Source: Candidatus Micrarchaeota archaeon (GTDB taxonomy: Archaea > B1Sed10-29 > JAJRYS01). From it: a stretch of 35,137 nt of DNA. The translations under genes were made by a program, and so were the position numbers. Location: contig CAZBZN010000004.1 of NCBI GenBank assembly GCA_964496415.1, forward strand, positions 1 through 35,137. Direction: 5' to 3'. The stretch's first letter is position 1. Every line of letters begins with the position of its first letter. Below, in pieces: positions 2,130 through 12,427 of this stretch. Below the pieces are notes generated by a model. The model was not told the DNA's origin. It searched no databases and saw only the letters and a list, made by a program, of their open reading frames with translations.

Positions 2130-2204
2130 TGGGCCAGGTGAGATTTGAACTCACGACCTCCCGATTATCAGTCGGGTGCTCCAACCAGACTAAGCTACTG
2201 GCCC
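2130..2204 (-). tRNA. tRNA-Ile(GAT), intronless, CCA not encoded
   Basis: GGGCCAG TA GCTT AGTCTGGTT GGAGC A CCCGA CT GAT AA TCGGG AGGTC GTGAG TTCAAAT CTCAC CTGGCCC A folds as a cloverleaf. Confidence 0.97.
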
Positions 2205-9467: not shown

Positions 9468-11765
9468 TCACTTCAACTTATGCATTTTTCTCAAGTCTTC
9501 TTCAAAAGGCTTAAGGTCTTCAGGAACCTCGATTCCTGTTATTTCAGAGTTAAGAGATAACCCCTGGTCTTTTTTCTTCTTCCACACGCTTGAATTAAAC
9601 TCAACAAGCCTTTCAGTAAGTTCAAGGAACTCTTCTTCTCCGCCTGGTTCTGGAAGCAGTTGCCTGTGAACGCTTTCACCATACACTTCCCTGTAAACCT
9701 TGTCAGTTACGAAAGGAGCTATTGGAGCAAGAAGCTTTGTAATAGTCTTCAAACAATGATGAAGAGTAAACAACGCTGACTCATCACCTTCATATGCTCT
9801 GTGTTTTACCATTTCAAGGTAATGAGGAGCAAACAAGTTCCACACAAACTCCCTTATCCTCGTGGCAGGGATGAAAAAGTTATAATCATCATAGCCTTTC
9901 CTGCATTCTTTTATCAGTTTGTTAAGCTCGGAGATTATCCAAAAGTCAGTTGGCTTAAGCTGCTCTGGCTGTTCTTTTTCATCAAACCCTGACACGAACC
10001 TAGCGACATTCCAATACTTAGTCAGGAACTTAGAAGCTCCTGCTATTCTCTCCTCACTTATCCTAAAGTCTTCTCCTATGCTTGTTTCTGAAGCAGCCCA
10101 GAACCTGTAAGCGTCAGCGCCGTACTTGTCAAGCACTGGCTCTGGGTCCATGAAGTTTCCTTTGCTTTTACTCATTTTCTTCCCATGCTCATCCAAGCCC
10201 ATGCCATGAATCATAACATGCTTGAAAGCAGGCTTTCCAGTAAGCTGGTAGTTCCTGAGAAGAGTATAATAAAGCCATGTTCTTACTATGTCTCTTCCCT
10301 GCGGCCTCATGGCACAAGGATAAGCTTTCTTAAACAATTCCTCGTCTCTCAAGTAACCAGTAACGTACAGGTTTGAAATTGAAGAGTCCATCCAAGTGTC
10401 AAACACTCTTGTCTCCCCAATGAATTCAGTAGACCCGCACTTGCTGCACTTGCTTCCTTCAGGAGGATCTTCTTTCCAAGGCTGGTAATACTTTCCAGGC
10501 TCTGGCACGAAAGGCTCCCCGCATTTCTTACAATACCACAACGGGATCTCAGTAGCATAATACCTTCTCCTGCTAATAGGCCAGTCAATAGTAATGCTGC
10601 TTATCCAGTCAAGAAGAATCTGCTTATGTTTTTCAGGATGAAACTCTATCTCGTCAGCTATCCTTTTAACATCCTCAAGGAATTCAAGTTGCTTTAAATA
10701 ATACTCATTCATTGCTATTATTTCGACAGGAGTGCCTGACCTCTCACAATAGGGAGCTCTATGAGGCACCTGCTCTTGCTTCACTATTAATCCTTGTTGC
10801 TTGAGATCTTCTATTATTACTTTCCTCGCTTCTTTCACTGTCATGCCTTTGTACTTTCCAGCAGCATCAGTCATCCTAGCATTGATGTCAATTGCTTCTA
10901 TTGGCTTCAATTTAAGTTCTCTGAATATTTGCACGTCAGTAAGGTCTCCATAAGAACAAACCATCACAAGACCTGAACCATACTCAGGAGAAGCAGAATG
11001 ATGACCCCTTATAGGAACTTCTCTCTCATAGATTGGTATGACTGCATGCTTTCCTTCCAAGTGTTTATATCTTTCATCTTCTGGATTGAACAACACCACC
11101 TGGCAAGCACATAATAGTTCAGGACGAGTAGTAGCGATTATTATCTCTTCTCCTGTTTCTTTCACCTTGAACTTCACGTAGTTCAAGGTAGTTGTTTCTT
11201 CTTTATATTCCAACTCAGCGTCAGCTATGGTGGTCTTACATTCAGGGCACCAGTTGTTAGGTTTTTTATCTTCGTAGATAAGCCCTTTTTTCCACAGTTC
11301 TATAAAAGTAGCTTGAGTAATTTTTCTGTATTCTTCCATGTCAGTGTAATAATAGTTTTCATAGTCAGCTGAAATGCCAAGTCTTTCATAAAGTCTTCTA
11401 ATCTCTTCCCCGTACTCGTTTATGGTCTGCTCGCATAACTTCAAAAATTCTTCTCTGTCATACTCATGAGCTGACTTACCATATTTCTTTTCAACAGCTG
11501 TCTCCACTGGCAAGCCGTTACGGTCAAGGCAAAAGGGGAAGTAAACTTCTTTCCCTTTCATCCTCTCACAACGTGCGATCATGTCAATAAGAGAATACCC
11601 CGCCATCGCCCCAGGATGCCATGAACCTGAAGGGTAAACAGGAGGATTATCTATTACAAATACTTCATCTTTTGTCTTGTCAAAAGAGTAAAGCTTCTCT
11701 TTCATCCACTCATCAAACAACTGTTTCTCAATCTCACGGCTTATCCTCTTATCTTTAATTTTCAT
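9468..11765 (-). CDS. valS: Valine--tRNA ligase (archaeal type, short)
   Basis: IDNPPVYPSGSWHPGA, DRNGLPVE, IATTRPELL, GSGLVMVCSYGD, DWPISRRR, DTWMDSS, RPQGRDIVRTW, KMSKSKGN. Confidence 0.95.
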   Translation of the reverse strand: MKIKDKRISREIEKQLFDEWMKEKLYSFDKTKDEVFVIDNPPVYPSGSWHPGAMAGYSLIDMIARCERMKGKEVYFPFCLDRNGLPVETAVEKKYGKSAHEYDREEFLKLCEQTINEYGEEIRRLYERLGISADYENYYYTDMEEYRKITQATFIELWKKGLIYEDKKPNNWCPECKTTIADAELEYKEETTTLNYVKFKVKETGEEIIIATTRPELLCACQVVLFNPEDERYKHLEGKHAVIPIYEREVPIRGHHSASPEYGSGLVMVCSYGDLTDVQIFRELKLKPIEAIDINARMTDAAGKYKGMTVKEARKVIIEDLKQQGLIVKQEQVPHRAPYCERSGTPVEIIAMNEYYLKQLEFLEDVKRIADEIEFHPEKHKQILLDWISSITIDWPISRRRYYATEIPLWYCKKCGEPFVPEPGKYYQPWKEDPPEGSKCSKCGSTEFIGETRVFDTWMDSSISNLYVTGYLRDEELFKKAYPCAMRPQGRDIVRTWLYYTLLRNYQLTGKPAFKHVMIHGMGLDEHGKKMSKSKGNFMDPEPVLDKYGADAYRFWAASETSIGEDFRISEERIAGASKFLTKYWNVARFVSGFDEKEQPEQLKPTDFWIISELNKLIKECRKGYDDYNFFIPATRIREFVWNLFAPHYLEMVKHRAYEGDESALFTLHHCLKTITKLLAPIAPFVTDKVYREVYGESVHRQLLPEPGGEEEFLELTERLVEFNSSVWKKKKDQGLSLNSEITGIEVPEDLKPFEEDLRKMHKLK

Positions 11766-11856
11766 GAACCCACCTTAGAACAAGCTACTGCAAAGACTAG
11801 CAGCAGCTTCTTAAGCTACTACACGTATTAGAATAACACGGGTCATTTTTCATCCC
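11766..11856 (-). promoter_or_regulatory. Candidate attenuator leader of valS-ileS with alternative hairpins
   Basis: Segments 11813-11822 and 11782-11791 are near-identical, and both are complementary to 11800-11809; SD AAGGTGG at 11770-11776; TATA-like TTTTAAAA at ~11880-11887. Confidence 0.6.
11811..11846 (-). CDS. Putative Val/Ile leader peptide MTRVILIRVVA
   Basis: ATG ACC CGT GTT ATT CTA ATA CGT GTA GTA GCT TAA; 5 of 10 post-Met codons are Val/Ile; preceded by SD-like GGGATGA; 45 nt upstream of valS. Confidence 0.6.
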   Translation of the reverse strand: MTRVILIRVVA

Positions 11857-11956
11857 AAATTATTTTTAAATTAAGTATTTTTTAAAACTTTTACTCTTTT
11901 AAAGTTTTTAGTTTAAACCTTATTATTTTTTAAACAAGCTCAACCCATAAGAACAA

Positions 11957-12427
11957 ATGATGCGAAAACGTTCTGTTAAAAAGGAGACATGGGGTCTTTC
12001 AAGAGAAGTTGAAGGGAGTCTTGCTGATCCTTTTGTTAAAGCAAAGCAGGCTTTTAGTCTAAGAGGTAAAAGAGAGCATTTTTTAGCATCGACTAAAATG
12101 AAGATTGGTGGGAAAGAAAAGAAGGTAACAATTCTCTCAGCAAAGAAAAAAGCTTTAGTAATAGTGAAAGGACCAGAGGGAAAACTTGAGGGAATAGTAA
12201 AGATAGAAGGCGGGAACGTTTATTTGGATGGTAAAGTTCCAAAGACAATAATAAGAAAAAGCTTTGAAATTGCTGGTAGGGAATCGCAAATACAGGAGTA
12301 TGATTTAAAACGTGAAATAATTAGTGACGTTTCAAGCATTTACAGGTCAGCTGGTTTTAAGAAAATCACACTCGCAGATCTTGAAAATATTCTTGGAGTA
12401 AAAATCAAGGGAATGAGACAAAGATAA
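11957..12427 (+). CDS. Hypothetical basic protein
   Basis: 156-aa ORF filling the gap between valS and proS on the opposite strand; no family recognised. Confidence 0.65.
   Translation: MMRKRSVKKETWGLSREVEGSLADPFVKAKQAFSLRGKREHFLASTKMKIGGKEKKVTILSAKKKALVIVKGPEGKLEGIVKIEGGNVYLDGKVPKTIIRKSFEIAGRESQIQEYDLKREIISDVSSIYRSAGFKKITLADLENILGVKIKGMRQR

Follow-up and report, generated by a model that had tools for sequence, protein, structure and literature searches.

A putative terminator-free leader-peptide regulator of valS-ileS in a Candidatus Micrarchaeota archaeon and its relatives

Attenuation by leader peptides, a textbook mechanism of bacteria, relies on ribosomes trailing the polymerase. The enterobacterial branched-chain attenuators, ilvL of ilvGMEDA and ivbL of ilvBN, are of this kind, and pheM-pheST of E. 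coli is a leader-peptide attenuator of synthetase genes; in translational attenuation of the ermC/cat type, a drug and the nascent peptide together cause the leader ribosome to stall. Here we analyse a 35,137-nucleotide (nt) stretch of DNA (the window), in which the operon of valS and ileS, encoding valine- and isoleucine--tRNA ligase, is preceded by an 11-codon upstream open reading frame (uORF) and alternative hairpins. The window is contig 4 (CAZBZN010000004.1) of the assembly of an uncultured Candidatus Micrarchaeota archaeon (GCA_964496415.1; 0.69 Mb, 41 contigs, G+C 36%). We find a real, conserved element that most likely senses the supply of Val- and Ile-tRNA through the leader open reading frame (ORF). 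It is probable that it acts in cis on valS-ileS, gauging charged tRNA-Val and tRNA-Ile via the time that ribosomes spend on the short ORF. With about equal confidence, we favour an archaeal family of amino-acid-specific leader-peptide regulators across this DPANN-type order, terminator-free and working via unmasking of the ribosome-binding site or factor-dependent termination.

The leader shares with ilvL and ivbL a Val/Ile-rich short ORF, a segment 1 inside this ORF, mutually exclusive 1:2 and 2:3 helices, and a stop codon beside segment 2. It differs from them in having no 3:4 terminator with a U-tract, in its archaeal host, in preceding synthetase rather than biosynthetic genes, and in its depletion of Leu codons. 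An earlier note on this DNA had recognized the layout of a bacterial leader-peptide attenuator; the description fits as regards the cognate-codon ORF and the exclusive helices, and fails at the 3:4 terminator. As in ermC/cat, a stalled leader ribosome would open a fold that hides the Shine-Dalgarno (SD) sequence of the next gene, making a terminator unnecessary; unlike there, the stall would presumably come from hungry Val/Ile codons, and SD masking is clear in some leaders only.

Attenuators of Streptomyces trpS and leuS have been predicted (PMC1262725). These and pheM-pheST resemble the present locus in having a leader ORF enriched in cognate codons before an aminoacyl-tRNA synthetase gene; unlike here, they are bacterial, carry terminator and antiterminator hairpins with poly-U, and serve one amino acid per enzyme. 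PMC1262725 also describes SD-sequestering T-boxes of actinobacterial ileS, and 'leader peptides without obvious terminators'. The former share with our proposal the gene ileS, control of translation initiation and a response to tRNA charging; the latter are likewise conserved and likewise miss an output element. Unlike the T-box, which binds tRNA directly, the leader matches no T-box or other Rfam family: the T-box covariance model had no match in the window, and the only gathering-score match to Rfam anywhere in the window was one tRNA, with chance-level scores (E > 1) at 11650-11990. To our knowledge, archaea have no T-boxes. Small ORFs in archaeal 5' untranslated regions (5'-UTRs) have been called 'reminiscent' of leader peptides in ribosome-profiling papers (PMC11456600, PMC10117724). 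Full-text literature searches, with most subscription journals outside their reach, returned no leader-peptide attenuation in archaea, and attenuation goes unmentioned in reviews on archaeal coupling and termination.

A Val/Ile-rich leader ORF before valS-ileS

The leader elements lie on the minus strand in a 191-nt gap that separates valS from a divergent ORF of 156 amino acids (aa):

11887-11876 (-): A/T box, TATA-like, TTTTAAAAAATA, 29-41 nt 5' of the uORF ATG
11870-11861 (-): second A/T box, TTTAAAAATA
11856-11852 (-): GGGAT, weak SD-like sequence preceding the uORF
11846-11811 (-): leader uORF MTRVILIRVVA and stop, 3 Val, 2 Ile and 1 Leu codons (ATG 11846-11844, stop 11813-11811)
11822-11813 (-): segment 1, GTAGTAGCTT (RNA GUAGUAGCUU), the Val-Val-Ala codons and the first stop base
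11809-11800 (-): segment 2, AAGCTGCTGC (RNA AAGCUGCUGC), partner of segment 1 or 3
11791-11782 (-): segment 3, GCAGTAGCTT (RNA GCAGUAGCUU), direct repeat of segment 1 (9/10)
11776-11770 (-): valS SD, AAGGTGG, with GGTG starting at -9, the modal position in the genome
11765-9468 (-): valS, valine--tRNA ligase, 765 aa (NF009687, 945 bits, over cut-off)
9467-6645 (-): ileS, isoleucine--tRNA ligase, 940 aa (TIGR00392, 913 bits)

The uORF reads ATG ACC CGT GTT ATT CTA ATA CGT GTA GTA GCT TAA. The coordinates in the earlier note were all correct, for this 11-codon ORF and, read on the minus strand, for segments 1 to 3; its naming of the two coupled downstream genes as valS and ileS agrees with the NF009687 and TIGR00392 matches. 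The ileS start codon abuts the valS stop, with no gap.

The order was represented by its 18 species genomes, 17 of which contain the valS 5' end. Upstream of valS, 11 of these 17 genomes, from 6 of the 8 families, have an ATG-initiated uORF, 10-28 codons long, whose stop lies 45-64 nt from the valS AUG in all 11 leaders; L011 is counted solely through its homology to other leaders of family f3. The conserved short Val/Ile-rich ORFs that the earlier note had proposed to look for in related archaea thus exist. The leader peptides are:

Window, family f1: MTRVILIRVVA
L005, family f1: MNANAVRVIIVAA
L004, family f4: MAFISIKQITVIVTIS
L007, family f5: MQITKCIIIV
L008, family f2: MPYQLVICGIVVIQ
L009, family f8: M..KVIIEIISLPQPVVVISK
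L020, L013, L014, L015 and L011, family f3: MPSITTKT...IIIP(I/V)(F/S) type

Across families these peptides cannot be aligned; what they retain is Val/Ile composition and its location near the stop. When families are weighted equally and intergenic small ORFs are taken as reference, Ile accounts for 26.9% of leader residues (3.8-fold enrichment) and Val for 16.3% (3.2-fold), and Leu (0.31-fold), Phe (0.27-fold) and Met (0.14-fold) are depleted. Within the last eight codons, Val and Ile together reach 56%. The bias reflects neither general hydrophobicity nor U-richness, and the pair of residues enriched is exactly the pair that the enzymes encoded downstream use as substrates. The Val/Ile-rich leader ORF recognized in the earlier note is a recurrent feature of this position across the order. 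The window genome has 742 intergenic ATG-ORFs of 8-30 codons, just four of which consist of at least 50% Val and Ile; the leader uORF is the sole one of the four before a synthetase gene, the other three being without a related downstream gene.

Clustering was scored as at least four Val/Ile in five consecutive codons of a uORF within 150 nt 5' of a gene. This level is reached by 7 of the 17 valS leaders of the order (at least three in five by 9/17), with a shuffle probability of at most 0.014 per region, as compared with 1/207 other upstream regions of the window genome and 3/165 valS upstream regions of other archaea; because the statistic was picked after data inspection and the families are related by descent, these counts are not clean P-values, though they differ widely. 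L015 is missed only because its uORF begins at -151, and L011 fails the test. The window leader alone scores three in five, a level met by 15/207 background regions. Taken alone, the window element is suggestive and not compelling; the relatives decide.

In wider sampling, one metagenome scan and one genome-collection scan (at least 80 loci each) returned matches that, as listed, came mostly from distant archaea; among the matches listed, only L047, whose leader equals that of L004, and L172, of f3 type, carried the leader. It was absent from those class-level relatives sampled whose valyl-tRNA synthetase (ValRS) is about 40% identical. Separately, ORFs 5' of valS in unrelated archaea, at L124/L125 (uORF at -124..-64) and L192, contain four Val/Ile in five codons (MSNIIIVCK..., ...VKVIIDRR); they are possibly reverse-strand coding sequence.

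Alternative hairpins around the uORF stop

Segment 2 is common to helices 1:2 and 2:3 of the window, which are thus mutually exclusive. Helix 1:2 closes a 3-nt loop with 10 base pairs (bp), two of them G-U; helix 2:3, likewise of 10 bp, contains a single G-U pair and closes an 8-nt loop. Because of their G-U pairs the helices are specific to the sense strand. The 1:2 hairpin is predicted at -13.9 kcal/mol and the extended hairpin with segment 3 at -19.3 kcal/mol. Unconstrained RNA adopts the 2:3 hairpin (11750-11870; minimum free energy z = -2.54, 4/200 shuffles equally stable), and the 10-bp 1:2 hairpin forms in a constrained fold once segment 3 is blocked. A switch score demanding two stable hairpins with one arm in common came to -13.9 kcal/mol, a value matched by none of 40 dinucleotide shuffles. 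A 50-nt interval that begins 5 nt ahead of the uORF stop has a folding energy of -20.1 kcal/mol (1/200 shuffles), the mean over 728 other small-ORF stop intervals of the genome being -5.7 kcal/mol.

No segment 4 or U-tract is present: segment 3 is followed by GUUCUAAGGUGG, and the valS AUG comes 17 nt later. Without these two features the locus is not a classical terminator-type attenuator. The lack of a U-tract, observed already in the earlier note, extends to the relatives, and an intrinsic terminator was rejected since the hairpins have no U-tracts behind them.

In all 11 leaders a stable hairpin starts no more than a few nt from the uORF stop. The corresponding 50-nt stop intervals have a mean z of -3.3, and in 10/11 leaders they are matched by at most 4 of 200 shuffles. 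From genus to genus the stems vary in sequence but keep their pairing through compensatory changes; in f3, double changes occur in 6/14 and 5/10 predicted pairs, counts that are conservative because the MAFFT alignment of the f3 hairpins displaces the 3' arm of L011 and L229. The switch score is reached by 0/40 shuffles each in the window, L005 and L009, and by 2/40 in L008. The exclusive 1:2/2:3 helices proposed in the earlier note recur in three further leaders, where compensatory changes accompany them; two of these leaders come from families other than that of the window genome. In L007 the switch is weak (7/40 shuffles reach the score), and it is absent from L004 and all five f3 leaders; because it is missing there, the order must hold at least two designs. 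Type A comprises the complete three-segment switch, its 1:2 hairpin containing or adjoining the stop codon (the window, L005, L009, L008 and weakly L007), and its stems vary (GCUU/AAGC, CGGC/GCCG, UUAUU/AAUAG). Type B is a single hairpin (L004 and the five f3 leaders).

Family f3 is peculiar in another respect. The first 24 nt of its uORFs, ATGCCGTCGATAACAACCAAGACA, are nearly invariant across three genera (L011, L013, L014, L015, L020). This block occurs once per genome, before valS, in 4/5 f3 genomes searched; G015 gave no match and G012 holds a second copy. The first eight codons are conserved as nucleotides, such changes as occur being non-synonymous, which indicates constraint at the level of RNA. 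A C/D-box small RNA was considered for these leaders and rejected: the UGAU before the ATG fits the SD consensus, and there is no consistent D box. As a side observation, in 3/5 leaders the valS start offers UGUCU as a possible partner for AGACA of the block, and the final codons of the uORFs are T-rich (TTTTTTAA, TTTTCTAA). The second copy in G012 (L229:1496-1700, +) is an f3-type leader with a valS 5' end at a contig end, MLPMTTKTALNMIIEPEKAFIPFS; relative to L011 it keeps Ile-Ile through a synonymous change with adjacent residues altered, and its stems are identical and its loops different. This copy could represent either a paralogue or variation between strains.

Transcript start and access to the valS Shine-Dalgarno sequence

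The 3' end of 16S rRNA is missing from the assembly, and the SD consensus, GAGGTGAT with GGTG at -9, was derived from 710 gene starts; the valS SD is an exact fit. An SD-like site of -4 kcal/mol or stronger precedes 5 of the 11 uORFs, as compared with 9% of 2139 intergenic ATGs and 41% of 712 gene starts. For the window uORF, GGGAT forms a duplex of -4.5 kcal/mol with the complement of the consensus, which is within the top 7% of the 2139 intergenic ATGs. The TATA-like box that the earlier note had placed 5' of the uORF is present, and in 10 of the 10 leaders with enough sequence the stretch 28-50 nt 5' of the uORF ATG contains an A/T run of 7 nt or more, as a raw count; in the two G+C-richest leaders this run is the sole one, or one of two, within 110 nt. 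The spacing from TATA box to transcript start is established for archaea. We infer a transcript start about 8-18 nt 5' of the uORF, and in the window about 10 nt, near the G run at 11856-11854.

The earlier note had suggested that freed segment 3 masks the valS SD and that formation of 2:3 exposes it. The folds did not support this. Segment 3 offers merely about 3 bp over the SD, as read from the sequence, and the predicted main partner of the SD is instead formed by the last uORF codons, fully in the window, L004, L014 and L015 and to some extent in L011. For the window SD the predicted partner is nt -5..0 from the uORF stop, the 3' part of segment 1, and this pairing closes the foot of the extended 2:3 hairpin. 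A pairing of the leader start, AUGACCC, with GGGUUCAU at the valS start had also been proposed; it appears as 6 bp with a bulge in a constrained fold, and has no clear counterpart in the relatives.

For the folds with ribosome-covered positions constrained, a check put forward in the earlier note, the ribosome was modelled as a 28-nt mask and the unpaired probability of the SD core was compared with shuffles. With the mask three codons before the stop, this probability climbs in the window (0.34 to 0.59), in L004 (0.09 to 0.70) and in L015 (0.02 to 0.45), and the window SD opens to 0.59-0.75 when the mask covers the last five codons. The gain summed over the 11 leaders is reached by 1/60 shuffles. 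Individually the effect is significant in 2/11 leaders, L004 and L015 (0/60 shuffles each); in the window, 11/60 shuffles do equally well. Translational attenuation, in which dwell on the Val/Ile codons would keep the ribosome-binding site open, is therefore the best reading, if unevenly supported. The output step, translation initiation as against termination or decay, is the least certain part.

Translational attenuation would proceed as follows. Transcription would begin about 10 nt 5' of the uORF, and a ribosome would translate MTRVILIRVVA. When Val- or Ile-tRNA is scarce, it would dwell on Val/Ile codons among the last eight, covering segment 1 and the 3' end of the uORF; this stretch would otherwise pair with segment 2 (1:2) or with the valS SD, where the extended 2:3 hairpin closes. 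The dwelling ribosome would alter the choice of hairpin and keep the valS ribosome-binding site open, and more ValRS and, via coupling, more isoleucyl-tRNA synthetase (IleRS) would be made. With ample supply the ribosome would reach the stop, melting the hairpin briefly, and depart, and the closed fold would re-form. Translation of the uORF, ribosome stalling, the change in expression and its direction are what we infer; from the sequence comparisons, the sensor half of the earlier reading appears well supported.

Several results, together with the post hoc choice of the clustering statistic, the modest score of the window leader, the patchy distribution of the switch and the nucleotide conservation of the f3 block, weigh against this account. 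The SD gain is equalled in the window by 11/60 shuffles, is confined to two leaders when each is judged individually, and is nil or reversed in L005, L007 and L008; a coarser measure, averaging -16..+4 with masks at every codon, revealed no consistent switch. The window uORF has only a weak SD, GGGAT, and if the second A/T box (11870-11861) were the TATA box, transcription would begin within the uORF. The leader is missing from 6/17 genomes of the order. In three of them, G004, G001 and G010, proS lies directly 5' of valS and the leader precedes neither valS nor proS. G002 has an insertion duplicating the valS 5' end and no leader, the 139 nt available 5' of valS in G009 contain no uORF, and G013, with a divergent ValRS (roughly 41% identical), lacks the leader. 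None was found before the stand-alone ileS of G004, G013 and G025, before the leuS genes examined in nine relatives (each directly behind another gene) or leuS of the window genome, or before metG and thrS of the window genome. Because it is absent from ileS-only, leuS, metG, thrS and proS-valS contexts, the leader is tied to a valS that heads a valS-ileS operon, the context described in the earlier note and borne out by comparison across the order.

Some operons carry additional genes. In f3, leuS comes after valS-ileS, and in G005 a class IV aminotransferase (PF01063, 196 bits; L134:169-1131, -), a family that includes branched-chain aminotransferase, stands between valS and ileS behind a Val/Ile leader. 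The window operon has a thermosome gene downstream and proS upstream as its outer neighbours. Because proS abuts valS in three relatives, the leader and the divergent 156-aa ORF fill what in those genomes is a proS-valS junction. The other features of the window are:

11957-12427 (+): 156-aa ORF separating the leader from proS, without a match in NCBIfam or Pfam
2130-2204 (-): tRNA gene (Rfam RF00005, 72.8 bits)

Two further observations concern this region. In another frame, a short ORF MKNDPCYSNTCSSLRSCC (4 Cys, 4 Ser; 11797-11853, -) starts 7 nt 5' of the leader ATG and stops just past segment 2; it is not conserved in L005, and its frame could be the translated one if the transcript begins at its ATG. 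G002 contains two insertions of about 100-130 nt each, at L003 (about 130 nt 5' of valS) and L128 (the valS/ileS junction). About 25-35 bp of target is directly duplicated on either side of each insertion, one of the duplications copying the first 12 valS codons, and they look like footprints of a small mobile element.

Competing explanations and significance

The same sensor, a ribosome dwelling on Val/Ile codons, might have another output, either transcriptional, the fold setting how much naked RNA FttA (aCPSF1) can reach before a ribosome loads at valS, or on mRNA stability, a stalled ribosome or a hairpin close to the 5' end giving protection from 5'-3' decay. We consider this possible, if rather unlikely. 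It would suit the 1:2/2:3 switch, which is significant in three to four leaders including L005, L008 and L009, where SD unmasking is not, and the A-rich or mixed sequence that follows the hairpins; because no U-tract follows them, termination would need a factor. FttA-dependent termination in competition with coupled ribosomes is documented (PMC11616081). The leader shows no FttA-specific sequence feature, however, and plain uncoupling by a stalled ribosome predicts lower, not higher, expression on starvation. Factor-dependent termination or a stability output may apply especially to type A leaders.

A second explanation, which we find improbable, takes the hairpin or hairpins as the operator of an RNA-binding protein, for example in autoregulation by ValRS or IleRS or in binding of another factor, with the uORF being incidental or tuning access. 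A hairpin at a fixed place is indeed the most uniformly conserved feature (10/11), and the nucleotide-conserved 5' block before valS in f3 could be read in the same way. A protein operator nevertheless leaves unexplained both an open frame from an ATG with an SD-like site and its enrichment in Ile and Val, not Leu and Phe. The hairpin loops hold no conserved tRNA-like anticodon loop, for which reason mimicry of the tRNA anticodon arm was also rejected, and have no Rfam match.

It is more doubtful still that the uORF is translated without sensing anything, whether it damps or couples valS translation constitutively or yields a small hydrophobic peptide with its own function. Archaeal 5'-UTR uORFs of unassigned function occur in ribosome profiling (PMC11456600, PMC10117724), and a hairpin within the 45-64 nt spacing could draw the valS start and the uORF stop together. 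Against this, only Val/Ile composition and its near-stop position, and not the peptide sequence, are kept between families, and a hydrophobic peptide would not shun Leu, Phe and Met. Chance, i.e. AT-rich intergenic DNA with a short ORF and inverted repeats, might be invoked for the window leader by itself, given how plentiful such ORFs are (742 in the genome's intergenic DNA) and how ordinary its three-in-five score is (15/207), but the comparative counts on enrichment, switch, composition and stop hairpins bring this explanation close to refutation.

If translational attenuation, or another output of the same Val/Ile sensor, is the correct reading, hungry-codon attenuation would no longer be a bacterial speciality. 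The valS-ileS leader would provide a concrete archaeal example of gene control sensed by translation and a way into the question of how archaea, without known T-boxes, set their synthetase levels, and its terminator-free design makes the output step a question for reporter assays. It would also show how genome-reduced symbionts, which are probably importers of amino acids, sense their supply.

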